64,000 bases of DNA from Nitrosopumilus sp. (GCA_018263505.1 JAANXA010000014.1:4319-68318); one strand, 5' to 3'. Shown: positions 4,572 to 64,000, numbered from the stretch's first letter. Notes: generated by a model not told the origin, from the sequence alone. Made by a program: numbers and translations.

Positions 4572-4802
4572 ATGGCTGACGAAATTTCAACACTAATGGC
4601 AAAAAACAAAAACAAAAAAGTATTACTCCGATTAAGAAATTCAAAAACTATTACTGGTATTCTAAAAGATTTTGATATTCATATGAATTTAACATTAGAA
4701 GATACTGAAGAGGAATTTGAAGGAAAAACTGAAAAAGTTGGAAAAACTCTTTTACGTGGCGATAATATTTTGCTAATCTCATTACCAAAAGAAGAATCTT
4801 AA
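4572..4802 (+). CDS. Sm-like (LSm/SmAP) RNA-binding protein
   Basis: 76 aa. Sm1/Sm2-like pattern ...GILKDFDIHMNLTLED...LLRGDNILLIS. Confidence 0.8.
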   Translation: MADEISTLMAKNKNKKVLLRLRNSKTITGILKDFDIHMNLTLEDTEEEFEGKTEKVGKTLLRGDNILLISLPKEES

Positions 4803-6864: not shown

Positions 6865-6888
6865 AATTTTTACAAATAATTTTTAGAG

Positions 6889-6976
6889 TAGCCCGAGGCA
6901 GATTCGAACTGCCGTCTCCGCCTATCCACTCTTGAGATCCAGAGGGCAGAATCCTTGACCGCTAGACTATCGGGCT
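6889..6976 (-). tRNA. tRNA-Gln(CUG) with a ~15-nt intron at the canonical 37/38 position
   Basis: Hand fold of the reverse complement: acceptor AGCCCGA/TCGGGCT, D arm GTCT-AGCGGTCAA-GGAT, anticodon stem CTGCC/GGCGG, loop CTCTGG[intron ATCTCAAGAGTGGAT]A, T arm GGCAG-TTCGAAT-CTGCC, discriminator A. No encoded CCA. Confidence 0.75.
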
Positions 6977-53033: not shown

Positions 53034-53876
53034 TTAGCCTTGGGTTTTTGGAGGATTTGATAATCCTCTTACGTAAACACATTGATCTGGTGATATTGCC
53101 ATTTCTAAGGGTTTGATTTTTCTATCTGTGAGTTTTGCACCTGATCCTCTAACTATTGAAAATGGTTTTGATTCTGCACCTTCACCCATTTTGTGATTTG
53201 CAATAGTTGCAAGATTATCTACTACAGCTTGAAATGTTACTTTTAATGGATTTCCATCCAAATCTTTTTTTGATCTCATATCCAAAATTGGTTCAATCCC
53301 TGCACATGCAATTGCAACACCTGATGTCCCTATCCTTGCTGGCATTAATCTACTATCTACTAAAATAACTCCAACATGAATGAGTAATTCTAAAAATACT
53401 TTTCTACGAATTTGTTCTGCAATAAGATATGGATTTGTAGGGTATAAGATGATCTTATCTTTTTTTGCATTTGACTTGTCAATCCCTGCATTTGGTGCCA
53501 TAATATTGTTTGATGATGTAATAACAAATCCTCCTATCCCTCCAAAAACTTCATCTGATTCTCTAATTATGATTTCAGCAATTTCTGGTTTCAATCTAAA
53601 TTTTTTTGAAATCTCATAACCTTTTTTTGATGTTTTAACACCTGTAATGTCAATTATTCTTCCTTGAGAATTTGAAATATATTTTGTAGAAATAACTAAA
53701 ACATCCCCATCTTGTAGCCTTTCTTTATTTTTTTCAAGTGTTTCAAATAATGTATCAAAAACATCAAATTCTCCCTCCATTCTATCTGCTAAAAGTGGTA
53801 AAACAGTTAATTGCACATTTTTTAGTTGTTGTTTTTCTTTTTTATTGTTCTGAAAAGCTTTTAATCTGCAAGACAA
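53034..53876 (-). CDS. cofE: coenzyme F420-0:L-glutamate ligase (CofE)-like protein
   Basis: DGDVLVISTKYISNSQGR, NAGIDKSN and VILVDSR...G..GVAIA.AG patterns are typical of CofE. Start uncertain (TTG at 53876 or an internal GTG). Confidence 0.72.
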   Translation of the reverse strand: MSCRLKAFQNNKKEKQQLKNVQLTVLPLLADRMEGEFDVFDTLFETLEKNKERLQDGDVLVISTKYISNSQGRIIDITGVKTSKKGYEISKKFRLKPEIAEIIIRESDEVFGGIGGFVITSSNNIMAPNAGIDKSNAKKDKIILYPTNPYLIAEQIRRKVFLELLIHVGVILVDSRLMPARIGTSGVAIACAGIEPILDMRSKKDLDGNPLKVTFQAVVDNLATIANHKMGEGAESKPFSIVRGSGAKLTDRKIKPLEMAISPDQCVYVRGLSNPPKTQG

Positions 53877-57065: not shown

Positions 57066-57368
57066 ATGGCAAAATCCTTAGGTGATTATAATATTGAACA
57101 ATCCTCTTCATCTGATATACATAATATCAAATGGACTAAAAAAGACACATCTGAAAATAAACCAAAATTAAGAAAGAAAAAAGCAATTCCTCCTACAAAT
57201 ATAATCCCAAATCAAAACACTGATAAAATTTCACCCGTTGAAAAAATCTTCAAAATTGAGGAAAATACTTCAGAAAAACCAAAAAATAAAAAAACAGAAA
57301 AAAAATTCCAAAAATCATCTGCCTCACATTGTAACATTGAACCTAGTTTCAAAAGACGAGGGCGATAA
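57066..57368 (+). CDS. Lys-rich low-complexity ORF (100 aa) between leuC and leuD; coding status doubtful
   Basis: ATG immediately after the leuC stop. A-rich sequence encoding K/N/S/E-rich peptide. An alternative-frame ORF overlaps it. Confidence 0.25.
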   Translation: MAKSLGDYNIEQSSSSDIHNIKWTKKDTSENKPKLRKKKAIPPTNIIPNQNTDKISPVEKIFKIEENTSEKPKNKKTEKKFQKSSASHCNIEPSFKRRGR

Positions 57369-58733: not shown

Positions 58734-59183
58734 CTAACGGTATGATTTCTGCTTTCTTCTTCTTGCACCAGGTCCACCAAATTTCTTTGGCTCTTTTCTT
58801 CTGGCATCTCCACTAATTAGATATTTGTCAAAATCAGAGATTCTTTTTCTGAGATCTTCTCTAGTTGATTTTGGGAATGGATGATCTTTAGGTTCTTTCT
58901 TTGATTTAGTCCATCCTGTTAATGCTCTTGAAATTCCAGTTGCAACTGCACTTGCTTGCCCCATGAAACCTCCTCCTCGCACTCTAACTGATATATCGAT
59001 TTTGTCTCTTAAATCCCCTGTGATTTCTAATGGTGCTAAAATCACTTCTCGTGCAGTTTCTTGTGGAATCATTTCTACTGGTATGTTGTTAATTCTAACT
59101 TTTCCTTGACCTTTTGTGATGTAAATATGTGCACTAGCTGTCTTTCTAGTTGCAAAATAAATCTCAGTTTTTGGTGTTGTCAT
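58734..59183 (-). CDS. rps9: 30S ribosomal protein S9 (uS9)
   Basis: S9 pattern GGGFMGQASAVATGISRAL, with the basic C-terminus ...RRRKQKSYR. Confidence 0.92.
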   Translation of the reverse strand: MTTPKTEIYFATRKTASAHIYITKGQGKVRINNIPVEMIPQETAREVILAPLEITGDLRDKIDISVRVRGGGFMGQASAVATGISRALTGWTKSKKEPKDHPFPKSTREDLRKRISDFDKYLISGDARRKEPKKFGGPGARRRKQKSYR

Positions 59184-59677
59184 TCAGTCCACCCTATAAC
59201 TCTACATAATTCTGCCATTGTGGTATAGTTTGATGCAGTTTTTCTAATCAATGCCTTTTCAAATTGAATTTTCTCTAGTGACTTTAATTCTTTTGGAGAC
59301 CCAATGTATGTTCTTAATCTTTTATGTGCAGCAATCCCTGATGGTTTTCCTTCATATGGTAACATACCTCTGATCATTTTTCTAATGATGGTATCTGGTC
59401 TTCTGTAATGTACAGGACCATGTTTTACATTGATAATACTGTTAATTTCTAAAAATTCTCTGTATTCTTGAATTAAATTACTTCTAGTCCCGCTCATCAT
59501 AATTTTCTCACAATTCACAAGAGATACTCTATTACCTTTTATCAATAATTTTGCAACATGTGAAGATAATCTTCCTGCTATGTGATTTTCTGCATTAACT
59601 ACAATTGGTCTATCTGTTCTAACTACTGTTTCTTGTTTGGTACTTCCTTTGGATTTATTGATTCTCCCATTAGCCAA
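59180..59677 (-). CDS. rpl13: 50S ribosomal protein L13 (uL13)
   Basis: IVVNAENHIAGRLSSHVAKLL pattern. The track ORF extends to 59713, but a TTG at 59677 gives only an 8-nt overlap with L18e. Start uncertain. Confidence 0.85.
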   Translation of the reverse strand: MANGRINKSKGSTKQETVVRTDRPIVVNAENHIAGRLSSHVAKLLIKGNRVSLVNCEKIMMSGTRSNLIQEYREFLEINSIINVKHGPVHYRRPDTIIRKMIRGMLPYEGKPSGIAAHKRLRTYIGSPKELKSLEKIQFEKALIRKTASNYTTMAELCRVIGWTE

Positions 59678-60017
59678 GTAAAACCACTCCTTTTCCTGTA
59701 GGATTATCCTCAATTAATTTTGAATAATTGATTAATTTTCCACCCTTTTCAATTATTTTATTTGCTGCAGAATTTGAAATTGAGAATGAACATAATGTAA
59801 TTTTATGAGAAATATTCCCTGTTCCTAAAACTTTTCCTGGAAACACTACTGTGTCATTATCTTTTGTTAATTGTGCAATTCTATTCAAATTAATATCTCT
59901 TCTAGCAATAGATGGTTTTAATGCATATTCTGCTAGTTTTGACCATATGGGAGCATCATTTTTTGTTGATGCCTTCCTTAGATCATTTGCCATACGAATA
60001 ACAACTTGATTAGTCAT
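59670..60017 (-). CDS. rpl18e: 50S ribosomal protein L18e (eL18)
   Basis: L18e-like sequence in the conserved rpoD-L18e-L13-S9 order. Confidence 0.88.
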   Translation of the reverse strand: MTNQVVIRMANDLRKASTKNDAPIWSKLAEYALKPSIARRDINLNRIAQLTKDNDTVVFPGKVLGTGNISHKITLCSFSISNSAANKIIEKGGKLINYSKLIEDNPTGKGVVLLG

Positions 60018-60062: not shown

Positions 60063-60728
60063 CTATTCTGAAATTTTACCGATCGTATCTTTGAATTCAA
60101 CTAATTTTTTGTTTACTTCATCCATACCCGTTAATATGATTTGTTCTGGTTCAAGTGCACCTGTTGATTCAACTGTTAGAACACTTTCTCCTTCTTTGTC
60201 TGTGTCTGTAAGTGTTGAAATATTTGATGAATTCCATTTTGCGTGTTCTGTTCCACGTCCTAATCTTGCATAACACTCTACTTTGATCTTTTGACCTGGT
60301 GCTAGTTGAACAATCGGAATGTTATCCGAAATTGGTTTTATAGAGTCATCTTCTGATGACAAATCACTGCTAAGTATTGTTCTAGTTACATCAGAGTCTC
60401 CTGAATCTAAAACTAACATTACTTTACAATTTGAACAACCAGTTTCACTGTGACACTCACATTTTGATGGTTCATTGAATCTAGACAAATCTGTTTTTAA
60501 CGGAATTAGTCCTAATCTATGTGCAAGTCCTTCATCTGGTAAGACTGATGAGTTTTCTATGATGTCAACTGTGTCAACTGCAAATACTGGAACACCATTT
60601 AAACAGATTCTTCTAAGTGCATTTGCATATTGTAATGGAATGCCTTTTAGTTTAACTGACATTTTTTTACTATCTTTACTAATAATCTCTAATGATGACA
60701 AATCTTGAAAAAAATCTTCAAAGTCCAC
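60063..60728 (-). CDS. rpoD: DNA-directed RNA polymerase subunit D (Rpo3)
   Basis: ANALRRICLNGVPVFAVD dimerisation-domain pattern. Cys cluster CECHSETGCSNCK. Operon position. Confidence 0.9.
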   Translation of the reverse strand: MDFEDFFQDLSSLEIISKDSKKMSVKLKGIPLQYANALRRICLNGVPVFAVDTVDIIENSSVLPDEGLAHRLGLIPLKTDLSRFNEPSKCECHSETGCSNCKVMLVLDSGDSDVTRTILSSDLSSEDDSIKPISDNIPIVQLAPGQKIKVECYARLGRGTEHAKWNSSNISTLTDTDKEGESVLTVESTGALEPEQIILTGMDEVNKKLVEFKDTIGKISE

Positions 60729-60916
60729 ATAAAAATCTAGCTGGTTTTACGTATAGTTATTAAAGTTTTAGAATTAAATTACTCACTGTTTTTGAAGTAT
60801 TTTGCAAGAAAATGATGGATTTGTATGGTACAATAACTTGAAGAACTTTCATTACATTCAAATTTTTGTTTTTCCTAATTACACCTTCATCTATTGCTGT
60901 GTTTTGTAATTTATAA

Positions 60917-61402
60917 TTATTCATTACCTTCATCATCTACTCTCGTTATACTATATCCTCCAATTCTTCCCCCTCCCCGATATTTTTTATAAATTACTTG
61001 ATTCCACCCTTTTACTTTAACTGTATCTAGTAGGATTACTGGATTTGAATAAGTGAGACTTTTTCTTCTCCATGGATCGCCCATATCAAGATCATATTCA
61101 TCTTCTTCAAATCCATAGATATACTCTCTTACAAATTCGATATCCATGGTAAAACTACACCATTTTTTTCCTCTTGATGAATCTCTAACTTTGATGATTT
61201 TCACAGGTTCTGAACCTGAACTGACAACAGAATTGATTTTTGAAACAATTTTTCTCCTATGTCTTATATATTTCTCAGAATTGTAATGACCAATTCTACA
61301 ATGAGCTTTTTCTGATAGACGAAATTTTACTATTTGAACCGTTCCATTCTTTTTTTTGCAGATTGGACATGGTCTTGGAAGAAATTTCTTTTTTGCAGGC
61401 AT
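60917..61402 (-). CDS. hypothetical protein with an N-terminal zinc-finger-like motif (161 aa)
   Basis: CPICKKKNG...HCRIGH near a basic N-terminus. No other motif. Confidence 0.45.
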   Translation of the reverse strand: MPAKKKFLPRPCPICKKKNGTVQIVKFRLSEKAHCRIGHYNSEKYIRHRRKIVSKINSVVSSGSEPVKIIKVRDSSRGKKWCSFTMDIEFVREYIYGFEEDEYDLDMGDPWRRKSLTYSNPVILLDTVKVKGWNQVIYKKYRGGGRIGGYSITRVDDEGNE

Positions 61403-61457
61403 CCTGATGAGTACAGAAATTAGTTCTCTTAAGTCATTTACGTTGTTTAACTGTTAG

Positions 61458-61592
61458 ATGACATCCCAAACATTCAAACAAATTGCTGTTTCTGTGGAAA
61501 ATTATTACAAATTAAAAAGACTGGGATTTGCTGGTGATTCCTTTAATGACGTTATTACTATTTTGCTAAACAAAGAAGGTATTGAAACATGA
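61458..61592 (+). CDS. 44-aa ribbon-helix-helix-like protein (not in ORF track)
   Basis: MTSQTFKQIAVSVENYYKLKRLGFAGDSFNDVITILLNKEGIET shows a strand-helix-helix pattern. Its TGA overlaps the next ATG (ATGA). Confidence 0.4.
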   Translation: MTSQTFKQIAVSVENYYKLKRLGFAGDSFNDVITILLNKEGIET

Positions 61593-61837
61593 AATCGTTT
61601 GCAAAAATATCTTCACACTTGATGAGCAAAGATCAATCCTTAGAATTAAAATTAGAAAATCAACACTACATAATGATTTTTCCCAAAGATCTAATTGAGA
61701 AATTAGGTATATTTTCAGATGAATTAAATTTCAAAATTGTACTAGATAATTCAAAAAAACTAACACTCGTTGGACCAAATATTTCCAATCTGTCCAAGAG
61801 TGATTCCATCAATCATCACAAAGAGGGAATGCTATGA
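61589..61837 (+). CDS. AbrB/SpoVT-like small DNA-binding protein
   Basis: IMIFPKDLIEKLGIFSDELNFKIVLDNSKKLTLVG resembles a swapped-hairpin AbrB motif. Confidence 0.42.
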   Translation: MKSFAKISSHLMSKDQSLELKLENQHYIMIFPKDLIEKLGIFSDELNFKIVLDNSKKLTLVGPNISNLSKSDSINHHKEGML

Positions 61838-62094
61838 CATTACACACCCCAATACATAAAGACCGTGTTGCATATTGTTCTCAAAATTATACTTGCATCA
61901 AACTAAAATGTCCTGTTTGTTTAATAAATAAAATTCCTAGACATTGCAAAATTCACAAAAATCTGGCAAGTTTGTGGTGGCATATTAAAAGAGAGCATGA
62001 GGGATTTGTTTATTCTCAATTTGATTATGATGATGTGCTAACTGCCCTAAACGGTATCACTAGAGCTATACAATGGGGTATTATTGTAAATTGA
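61834..62094 (+). CDS. C2H2-type zinc-finger protein (86 aa)
   Basis: CPVCLINKIPRHCKIHKNLASLWWHIKREH (C-x2-C...H-x4-H). ATGA overlap with the upstream gene. Confidence 0.5.
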   Translation: MTLHTPIHKDRVAYCSQNYTCIKLKCPVCLINKIPRHCKIHKNLASLWWHIKREHEGFVYSQFDYDDVLTALNGITRAIQWGIIVN

Positions 62095-62236
62095 CTTTTA
62101 CCTGTATCTGTCTAAAATTACCTGAACCATCTGTTTCTTTCATCTTTTTTTGTATTGTACAACAATTATCAAATTTTTGTATTTTATATGATGATTTGAC
62201 TGAAAATGTTTTTTTCAAAATTTTGGAGAGTAAAAA

Positions 62237-64000
62237 ATGAACTCAGTAGAATATTATAATTCTAAAGGCTATAGAACCCTGGAAATCCCTCTTAATACTA
62301 CAAATCCTAAAGCCTTAGTTCGAAAAGGATGGGATCATGAGCCTACAAATCGAAATATTTCATCTGATAGACTATTTGCAGTAATACAAGAGGGCCAAAA
62401 TCTGGTTATTGATATTGATGATATATCTCTAAATGGACTTTTGGAGAATTATTTGAATAAAACACTTGTCACAAAAACTGGAAATGGTGGTCGACATTAT
62501 TATTTTAAAGATAAATCCAGAGTTGAGAAATATACAATCAAATCTACACCGCTATACAAAAATGGAAAACATGTAGGTGATATTAAAGCAGACATGTCCT
62601 ATGTGATAGGATATGGTAGAAGTTACAAAGATCCAAAAGATCACAAAATTAAAAGTTATGACAAAATAAGTTCTGTTGATCAAATTTTAGAACTAGATGT
62701 TTATGAAATATTAAAAATATTAACAAATGCTGGAATCACCAAAACAAAATCAAGTGATAGAAAAATCGATTCTACAATTAACACTCAATTAACAAATGGA
62801 TTAGTTGTAGGTGAACGTAATAACGAATTATTCAAAACATCTTGTGATTTTTTAGAAAAAAATATATCAAAAGAAAATGTTAGAGTAATGTTAATTGAAA
62901 TCAATAATGCATCACCTAAACCATTACCTGAAAGTGAAATTGATTCAGTGTTAAACTCTGCTGACAAAAGAATTACTAATAAAAAACAACAAGAGAAATT
63001 ATCATCAAAAGAAATTGTAGAATTTGTCGCAAAACAAATAATGGAAGAAAAAGAATTTGTAACAATTTCTAGAACTAATGAGATTCTAACATGGGATGGA
63101 AAGATCTACTCTCAAGCAAATGCAGTTGCATACATCAAAAGTAAAACTGAGCAACTAGTCTATGACAATACAGAACATATCTCAAATGAAGTTGTAAACA
63201 AAATCAAAAGAAGAACTTACAAAGATATTGAAGAGTTCGACGTTAACCCTAATGAGATAACCACCCTTGATGGAGTCCTTAATCTTGAGACCTTGGCTAT
63301 TACGCCTCATTCACCTGATAATTTGAGCCTGATTTTAGTCCCATTAGCATATTCTGAGCCTAAATTTTCAATTAATAACGCAACAATCTTTGAGGATATT
63401 GAAAAGAATCTCAAAGATACACTGTTTTGGAAATTCATTACATCAAGTTTTACTGTAAAAGAAAAACTACAAGAAAAAAAAAGAGAAACAGTATTAGAAA
63501 TTTTAGCATCTATTTTCATAAAGCATCAGATTGACCAACGAGGTTTTATTTTCCTTGGGAGAGGTGATAATGGAAAGTCAGTATTCATTGAATATTTACA
63601 AATGATGTTAGGTAAAGAGAATTATTCAAATGAAACATTACATGATTTATCCACTGACAGATTTGCATCAGCATCACTCCTTGGAAAATTACTAAACTGT
63701 TTTTCAGATATTGAATCAAATGAATTGGATAGAGTTGGGATTCTAAAAGCAATACTTGCAGGTGAATGGATTTCAGCTCAATTTAAGAACGGTCAAAAAT
63801 TCAAATTCAATCCATTTTGTAAAATGGTATTTAGTTGTAATAGATTCCCAAAGGTATCAGATAATACTGAATCTTTCTTTAGGCGTTGGATAATTGTAAA
63901 GTGGGAACGTTCCTTTGAAGGTGATCCGCAAAGAGATGAAAAATTAGTTGAAAAATTATCTTCTAACCAAGAAGAATTGAATTTAGTTTTCTCAACTATT
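62237..64000 (+). CDS. replication protein: primase-polymerase (prim-pol) + PriCT-like + D5_N/SF3 (P4-family) helicase; 3' end lies outside the window
   Basis: Hand translation is open for 588 codons to the window edge. Motifs: IDIDD, GNGGRHYYF, GERNNELF, Walker A GRGDNGKS, Walker B-like LLNCFSDIES, FFRRWIIV. Confidence 0.85.
   Translation, partial: MNSVEYYNSKGYRTLEIPLNTTNPKALVRKGWDHEPTNRNISSDRLFAVIQEGQNLVIDIDDISLNGLLENYLNKTLVTKTGNGGRHYYFKDKSRVEKYTIKSTPLYKNGKHVGDIKADMSYVIGYGRSYKDPKDHKIKSYDKISSVDQILELDVYEILKILTNAGITKTKSSDRKIDSTINTQLTNGLVVGERNNELFKTSCDFLEKNISKENVRVMLIEINNASPKPLPESEIDSVLNSADKRITNKKQQEKLSSKEIVEFVAKQIMEEKEFVTISRTNEILTWDGKIYSQANAVAYIKSKTEQLVYDNTEHISNEVVNKIKRRTYKDIEEFDVNPNEITTLDGVLNLETLAITPHSPDNLSLILVPLAYSEPKFSINNATIFEDIEKNLKDTLFWKFITSSFTVKEKLQEKKRETVLEILASIFIKHQIDQRGFIFLGRGDNGKSVFIEYLQMMLGKENYSNETLHDLSTDRFASASLLGKLLNCFSDIESNELDRVGILKAILAGEWISAQFKNGQKFKFNPFCKMVFSCNRFPKVSDNTESFFRRWIIVKWERSFEGDPQRDEKLVEKLSSNQEELNLVFSTI

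Follow-up and report, generated by a model that had tools for sequence, protein, structure and literature searches.

A probable plasmid-like integrated element in the spacer between rpoD and SBDS of a sponge-associated Nitrosopumilus

A 64,000-nucleotide stretch of DNA from Nitrosopumilus sp. (the whole stretch is referred to here as the window) ends in a segment that is inserted immediately upstream of rpoD, the gene for RNA polymerase subunit D and the first gene of the rpoD-L18e-L13-S9 operon. The segment, 60757–64000, is the left part of an inserted element (3,244 bp) and is absent from contigs that are 99.6–99.9% identical to the window in the flank, so that its status as an insertion relative to near-identical strains is virtually certain. 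This status follows from the empty-site contigs and is not shown by base composition, which is not distinctive (G+C 0.29–0.31 in the element against about 0.32 in the whole window). We consider it likely that the segment is a recently mobile, plasmid-like element with its own replicase, of the kind already described as thaumarchaeal cryptic integrated elements (CIE) with a primase-polymerase–superfamily 3 helicase (primpol-S3H) replicase (Krupovic 2019). The source record of the window is Nitrosopumilus sp. MAG458 (NCBI; 70,767 nt, with locus tags of the form MAG458_005xx retrieved through cluster look-ups); the window has a G+C content of about 32% and belongs to a member of the Nitrosopumilaceae, the host being a sponge-associated Nitrosopumilus.

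The insertion is defined by a comparison of empty and filled sites. An exact look-up of the RpoD protein led to near-identical contigs carrying an identical RpoD, among which L193, L195, L196, L198, L199 and L201 are 99.63–99.91% identical to the window over 1.1–10.7 kb and have SBDS, divergently oriented, 61 bp from rpoD. All of the empty-site alignments to the window stop at 60756: the empty site reads ...GCTGGTTTTACGTATAG|ATAAATACTAAATTCTCTTTACATCATTTAACAATG and leads into SBDS, and the filled site reads ...GCTGGTTTTACGTATAG|TTATTAAAGTTTTAG... The left edge of the element lies at 60756/60757. The 28 bp of host spacer that separate it from the rpoD start codon (60729–60756) are the same in all empty-site contigs and also in L006, a relative 89.5% identical to the window. 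The filled junction occurs on independent sponge-metagenome contigs, in which the element is 97.4% (L001) or 99.9% (L002) identical to that of the window; L003 and L004 carry the element together with 30 nt of flank and then end. A preliminary description of this region had proposed a mobile element directly upstream of rpoD, starting at 60729 and with its other boundary outside the window. The element is confirmed by these comparisons and runs at least 2,350 bp past 64000, for about 5.6 kb recovered in all, and its start is moved to 60757.

Comparison across the family bears on the age and the setting of the insertion. In L006, the nearest species representative (rpoD 95% identical in amino acids and 89.5% in nucleotides), rpoD and an SBDS-Rrp4-Rrp41-Rrp42-L37ae operon are divergent and 60 bp apart, and the similarity to the window extends to about 30 bp upstream of rpoD and no further. 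A divergent SBDS is the upstream neighbor of rpoD in 78 of 80 Nitrosopumilaceae species representatives, and the S13-S4-S11-rpoD linkage is therefore absent from this family, element or not. Of the two possibilities raised in the preliminary description, a lineage without S11-rpoD linkage is thus what is found, and insertion between S11 and rpoD is right as to insertion and wrong as to the site, which lies between SBDS and rpoD. The same description had considered that the segment might be conserved across the genus, that is, an ancestral or domesticated part of the lineage, and its undistinguished G+C content would agree with this; in the synteny comparison, however, none of the 80 representatives has element genes within 10 kb of rpoD, and the segment is missing from strains with a flank of at least 99.6% identity, which makes an ancestral origin almost inconceivable. 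The SBDS-rpoD spacer is itself a recurrent landing spot, or insertion hot spot: it measures 100 bp or less in 36 species and 0.1–7.5 kb in 42, and it holds insertion sequence (IS)-type transposase genes in L036 (3735–9998) and transporter and helix-turn-helix (HTH) genes in L074 (2569–10013).

The points at which assembled contigs start and stop suggest a direct repeat of 9 bp, TACGTATAG, on either side of the element; its left copy would lie at 60748–60756 and could be an attachment (att) core or a target duplication. The Logan contigs examined were built at k = 31 and stop at branch points, and in SRR988536/7 and SRR10589498/504/506 they break exactly at both junctions. First, the element-side contigs L003 and L004 start at 60727, with exactly 30 nt of shared flank ahead of the element. 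Second, the rpoD-side contigs L194, L197 and L200 end at 60756, right after TACGTATAG. Third, the SBDS-side contigs L203 (SRR988537) and L209 (SRR988536) start exactly at TACGTATAGATAAATAC, i.e. at TACGTATAG. The empty site is spelled GGTTT-TACGTATAG-ATAAATAC, and the bases preceding TACGTATAG do not vary among the empty-site strains seen, of which L006 and L192 are more distant; a strain-specific single-nucleotide polymorphism does not explain the break before TACGTATAG, because no known strain has one there. Most simply, those samples contain both the filled and the empty allele, in which case the right junction would read element-TACGTATAG-ATAAATAC and a 9-bp direct repeat would result. A look-up of SBDS contigs for the right junction returned empty sites or contigs starting at TACGTATAG only. 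The att sites of thaumarchaeal integrated mobile genetic elements have a minimum length of 8 bp and a median of 17 bp, and 15 of 68 elements are intergenic (PMC6563490), so that a repeat of 9 bp falls in the reported range.

A repeat of this length also brings to mind a transposon, whose DDE-type transposase would duplicate 9 bp of the target site. Duplications of 9 bp are typical of several transposase families, and the transposase genes in the spacer of L036 are of IS type. Nevertheless, no transposase is found in the 5.6 kb, the relatives with identifiable recombinases all have tyrosine integrases, and the same insertion position is used by element copies 2.6% apart, which suggests site specificity; we regard a transposon as highly improbable.

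The largest gene of the element, which begins at 62237 (+) and extends beyond 64000 (codons 1–588 of 701 lie within the window), encodes a replicase that combines a probable archaeo-eukaryotic primase (AEP) primpol, PriCT_1, D5_N and a superfamily 3 (SF3) helicase. The protein (P0195 at its full length of 701 aa) scores above the Pfam cut-offs for DUF5906/SF3 helicase (75.8 bits, cut-off 27.6), PriCT_1 (PF08708; 42.3, cut-off 21.1) and D5_N (24.9, cut-off 22.4), and just under the gathering score of 22.8 for Prim-Pol (PF09250; 18.7 bits), for which several homologues have a precomputed match. It also matches TIGR01613, the P4-family primase C-terminal domain (118 bits, cut-off 108.7), PHROG DNA-primase families (E down to 2e-54) and PDB 7OLA, titled DNA primase (E 1e-12). 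Among 30 aligned homologues there is no variation in the AEP motifs D59/D61, G82/G85/H87 and D115 or in G441, G443, N445, G446 and K447 of the Walker A motif GRGDNGKS (G441-K447). The reading frame is intact in the window genome and in L001, and in L004 to the end of the contig, with all catalytic motifs present; the replicase thus appears intact, and in such elements an enzyme with these domains is predicted to start and unwind the element's own replication. This replicase family is frequent in thaumarchaeal metagenomes, both marine and terrestrial, with 74 clusters, 118 stretches of metagenome and 8 species genomes.

Between rpoD and the replicase gene lie a terminal non-coding arm and four further genes, and the genes listed in the preliminary description (a Zn-finger reading frame, three small genes and a prim-pol/SF3 gene) are all present. 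The arm (60757–60916, 160 bp) is the most divergent segment relative to L001, with 90% identity and a 7-nt indel as against 96.5–99.6% for the element genes; it has no family match and no integrase similarity in any frame, and a 58-aa open reading frame (ORF) within it (60760–60936, −) is probably spurious. ORF161 (60917–61402, −) carries a Zn-binding CxxC...C..H motif and is divergent from the replication operon across a region of 55 bp. ORF44 (61458–61592, +) may be a ribbon-helix-helix (RHH) or VapB-antitoxin-like protein (PF02697, E 1.3e-4, under the Pfam gathering score) and is 59–62% identical to its positional counterparts in L095 and L300. ORF82 (61589–61837, +) is conserved in L001–L005 with 98.8–100% amino acid identity; it has no family match in Pfam, PHROGs or NCBIfam, and its single-sequence AlphaFold2 (AF2) model is unusable (pLDDT 51). 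ORF86 (61834–62094, +) has a C2H2-like zinc-finger motif in its sequence (CPVC...H...H), and homologues are located directly upstream of the helicase gene in four related elements (L122, L149, L093 and L116). The three small genes had been taken to encode DNA-binding proteins, a view that has weak backing from the VapB/RHH-like match of ORF44, is backed by a motif in ORF86 and gains no support for ORF82. ORF161 and the small RHH-like and C2H2-like proteins would be the regulators of the element. A PADLOC scan of the nine intact element proteins found no defence genes, a search for iterons and inverted repeats in the intergenic regions found nothing above chance, and profile scans detected no virion-morphogenesis or conjugation genes in the recovered 5.6 kb.

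ORF161, which the preliminary description had called an orphan, belongs to a family that is small (49 representatives at 50% clustering) and spans elements of Nitrosopumilus and Nitrososphaera, with homologues at L095:6062-6532 and L300:8001-8387. Residues P9, P13, C15, G20, H39, Y40, G132 and W133 are invariant in all 49 representatives; the N-terminus MPAKRKLLPxPCPxC..GT.Q...CRIGHY is conserved, several of its positions being invariant, and so is the C-terminal GW. The AF2 model is confident (pLDDT 82, pTM 0.70), and a Foldseek search with it against PDB and BFVD gave no match (best E 1.3 and 0.16; TM ≤0.21), so that, judged from the model, ORF161 may represent a new Zn-binding fold. Its divergent orientation relative to the replication operon and its place beside the integrase in relatives suggest that it is a regulator of the element.

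Beyond the window, about 2.35 kb of the element could be joined from L001, L212 and L214/L215, of which L214 and L215 stop at one base, and the tags MAG458_00551 to 00554 confirm that the joined contigs are the true continuation. This gives the element a minimum length of 5,594 bp, with no more than 4.4 kb of the source contig left past the recovered part. Past 64000, the end of the primase is followed by MAG458_00551 (ORF109; 109 aa, Zn-ribbon-like), by an uncalled Zn-ribbon gene (ORF83; 83 aa, with homologues in five related elements), by MAG458_00552 (ORF178; 178 aa, weak HTH) and then by MAG458_00553 (104 aa, −) and MAG458_00554 (ORF47; 47 aa, −), after which there is a promoter-like spacer. 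Scans of genome, metagenome and viral collections for a continuation yielded relatives of at most 50% identity only. The preliminary description had suggested extending the sequence past 64000 for an integrase and a terminal repeat; the extension provides more of the element, and neither an integrase nor a second copy of TACGTATAG is in it, the recovered 5.6 kb having no internal TACGTATAG at all.

Related elements show where an integrase might be expected. The primases of relatives are 44–69% identical to that of the window, and these relatives are small, integrase-bearing elements. The closest, L086 (primase 69% identical), consists of a tyrosine integrase, a divergent ORF, three small ORFs, the primase and one or two genes, followed by host P-II and urease genes, and L089 is similar. 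The integrase is upstream of the primase and on the same strand at about 22 loci, and is only downstream and on the opposite strand in L103, L122 and L149, of which L122 and L149 also have ORF86. In L095 and L300 the gene order is int, ORF161-like, ORF44-like, further genes and then the helicase; the integrase or integrase-like gene next to the ORF161 homologue reaches Pfam Phage_integrase in L095 and is a weak match in L300 (26% identity over 76 aa). Comparison of L095 with six genomes without that element places its left edge at about position 4760, homology not being resumed within 16.5 kb, and a search for an att repeat in L095 gave nothing convincing.

Several points weigh against a recently mobile CIE-like element. 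First, neither a gene for an integrase nor a remnant of one turned up in the window or the 2.35 kb beyond it (tblastn with three family integrases, and Pfam), and ORF161 lies 160 bp from host DNA, at the position held by int in L095 and L300. Second, the primase has four single-base indels in L212 (SRR988537) and one in L003 (SRR988536), which split the reading frame and could be due to pseudogenisation or decay or to homopolymer sequencing errors. Third, the 1.1-kb ORF109-ORF83-ORF178 module (L213:1151-2334, L216:1-716, L214:1-1107) is 98–100% identical to part of a different, integrase-bearing element, L213. Fourth, the 9-bp repeat is deduced from the start and stop points of de Bruijn contigs, the left junction being the one observed, and a 9-bp duplication would fit a DDE-type transposase too. 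Finally, the promoter replacement proposed below comes from inspection of the sequence.

The first three of these points lead to two other accounts of the locus. In one, the segment is a defective remnant that integrated once, lost its integrase and no longer moves by itself, and the polymorphism would stem from an old segregating insertion, from homologous replacement or from mobilisation in trans by a co-resident element. The lack of an integrase in 5.6 kb, though L095 and L300 place int directly beside ORF161, speaks for such decay, as do the frameshifted primase in two samples and the presence of an integrase-bearing element with the shared module in the same sponge metagenome as L001. Yet the replicase is intact in the window genome, in L001 and, as far as the contig goes, in L004, the junctions are precise, and up to 4.4 kb of contig lies beyond the recovered part, which is relevant in that L103, L122 and L149 carry an integrase downstream of the primase. 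A remnant is accordingly possible, if rather doubtful.

In the other account the locus is composite, with at least two elements in tandem at one site, or a recombinant, and the window would show the first unit only. The ORF109-ORF83-ORF178 genes lie behind the primase here; in L213, a contig of the sponge metagenome that also yielded L001, they follow an integrase C-terminus and an unrelated, divergent 256-aa gene (ORF256). L213 and L216 both end 81 nt past ORF178, in two different flanks. The shared 1.1-kb module points to module exchange or to a second active element, the integrase-bearing one, which occupies two other flanks in sponge metagenomes. Co-resident elements thus appear to exchange modules, and the locus in the window could be chimeric or an array of tandem units. 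For thaumarchaeal proviruses, integration in tandem at a single intergenic site has been documented (PMC6563490). A composite is nonetheless unlikely, since the 5.6 kb has no internal TACGTATAG and there is no integrase fragment at the module boundary. A search for terminal repeats common to the left arm and the ends of L213, L214 and L216 showed no similarity.

The helicase half of the replicase raises the question of a virus. Residues 254–691 share 40–42% identity with ORFs from four genomes of metagenomic origin labelled 'Nitrosopumilaceae spindle-shaped virus' (27–36 kb), and the same helicase family is present on IMG/VR contigs; the viral helicases (BK067790.1 20834–22498, i.e. L218, and the IMG/VR loci L179–L182) are without the primpol half, and in the paper on the spindle-shaped viruses the helicase goes unmentioned. 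The element could on this basis be a provirus, derived from a spindle-shaped virus or from another virus of Thaumarchaeota, and its structural genes would then lie past 64000. This is very unlikely, as the other 10 element proteins have no match in BK067790 (the one viral genome compared) or in the IMG/VR loci, at most 4.4 kb of contig is left, far too little for 27–36 kb unless the contig ends inside the virus, and the closest relatives, L086 and L089, appear to be about 6-kb elements without capsid genes. An SSV1-type provirus with a split integrase was also considered and rejected, the left arm, at the one border seen, being without integrase similarity.

We return to a recently mobile CIE-like element as the preferred reading and propose how it may have come to reside at this site. 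The element sits within the 61 bp of promoter spacer that separate the divergent SBDS-exosome and rpoD-L18e-L13-S9 operons. The 9-bp TACGTATAG repeat would serve as a very short att core for site-specific recombination, with a tyrosine integrase catalysing both integration and excision. In the circular form attP would lie between int and ORF161, and integration would then put int at the right end, beside SBDS. The latter prediction is made by analogy, because int adjoins ORF161 in L095 and L300 where the window has host DNA, and we are evenly divided on whether it holds; the divergent promoter-like spacer past ORF47 fits a following plus-strand gene. That the integrase has instead been lost or is supplied in trans is plausible, though we lean against it. 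The right end is predicted to read ...TACGTATAG-ATAAATACTAAATTC, followed by SBDS, and the hypothetical circular junction would consist of the right end, TACGTATAG and TTATTAAAG.

The location of the element suggests a way in which both host operons could remain expressed. Read towards rpoD, the empty site carries the sequence TATTTAT about 35 to 29 nt ahead of the start codon, and the arm of the element ends in TTTAATAA at −36 to −29. This AT-rich sequence would replace the native TATTTAT and keep the essential rpoD operon transcribed, and, given the 9-bp repeat, the AT-rich box facing SBDS (ATAAATAC) would stay as it was. To judge from these motifs, the insertion plausibly preserves both promoters. 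A sigma-70 promoter and terminator scan is uninformative for archaea. A bolder proposal, which we put forward as a distinctly long shot, is that the element is an integrase-less hitch-hiker that has its own replicase and relies, for integration and excision, on the tyrosine integrase of a co-resident element of the L213 type with which it exchanges the 1.1-kb module, with the arm giving a substitute TATA box and ORF161 being a new Zn-binding fold that controls such elements in Nitrosopumilales and Nitrososphaerales.

The left host flank consists of rpoD (60063–60728, −; GTG start, Pfam RNA_pol_A_bac and RNA_pol_L) and the remaining genes of its operon, L18e (59670–60017, −), L13 (59180–59713, −) and S9 (58734–59183, −). 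A tRNA scan found none near the element, in agreement with the absence of a tRNA from its left end in the preliminary description; the sole tRNA of the window is tRNA-Gln(CTG) at 6888–6976 (−), which at 89 nt may hold an intron. Further into the host DNA, a lysine-rich 100-aa ORF (57066–57368, +) lies between two aconitase-family (leuC/leuD-like) genes and is called, without a Pfam match, in all related contigs. Another small presence/absence difference is found at 53850–53855, where the strain of L192 (96.7% identical; L192:13746-14748) has about 1 kb with an extra gene, encoding 240 aa with a weak Zincin_1 match, that is absent from the window.

Three aspects of this locus are new: the insertion point is precise to the base, and natural populations contain the filled and the empty allele together; the element has landed inside the bidirectional promoter of two essential operons; and no integrase stands where one is usually located. 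Little is known of the mobile DNA of ammonia-oxidising archaea, most elements having been defined from single genomes with att sites that are short and hard to verify, and a filled/empty pair in strains more than 99.6% identical, from sponge metagenomes, gives the insertion point to the base and indicates recent mobility. It appears that a 61-bp bidirectional promoter serving rpoD and ribosomal proteins on one side and SBDS and the exosome on the other tolerates a multi-kb insertion, and that a conserved core of int-ORF161-ORF44-helicase is common to elements of Nitrosopumilus and Nitrososphaera. The picture of what such elements are stays unchanged.

Among individual elements, L086/L087 (JGI Ga0117917_1001369; primase P0002, 69%) shares with the window the replicase family, the layout of small upstream ORFs and a divergent gene, and a flank of ordinary Nitrosopumilus host genes (P-II, urea transporter and urease); it differs in having a 366-aa tyrosine integrase at its left end and in that its divergent gene and small ORFs have no detectable homology to ORF161, ORF44, ORF82 or ORF86. 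In L095 (Nitrosopumilus chromosome OZ252092) and L300 (Nitrososphaera metagenome-assembled genome JBBRRH010000018) homologues of ORF161 (31–43%, tblastn) and ORF44 (59–62%) are arranged head to head and followed by a D5_N/SF3 helicase, whereas the helicases match residues 239–690 of the replicase only, the N-terminus differs, and the insertion sites are not that of the window (that of L095 is next to citrate synthase). The P4-family or D5-like primase-helicases of phages, plasmids and Staphylococcus aureus pathogenicity island (SaPI)-type islands (TIGR01613, PDB 7OLA) have in common with the replicase an N-terminal primase, D5_N and SF3 with Walker A, but the bacterial examples have a DnaG/TOPRIM-type primase in place of the AEP primpol and PriCT_1 linker, and identity is 23–27%.

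The closest known counterparts are the thaumarchaeal CIE, some of which encode primpol-S3H fusions (PMC6563490). An integrase is by definition the one conserved gene of CIE (PMC6563490), in contrast to the 5.6 kb of the element recovered here, in which none was found. Elements such as NitKor_MY1-E1 and NitAQ6f-E4 (PMC6563490) are otherwise alike in being small, in having a Nitrosopumilales host and in encoding a primpol-SF3 helicase fusion, the likeness to these named elements being one of description. They also resemble it in their intergenic target and highly variable ORFan accessory genes, and probably in a very short repeat (8 bp as the reported minimum, 9 bp predicted here); no virion or conjugation genes were detected in the part of the element seen. 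The 40–42% identity of the helicases of the spindle-shaped viruses indicates that plasmid-like elements and viruses of these archaea share a helicase replication module.

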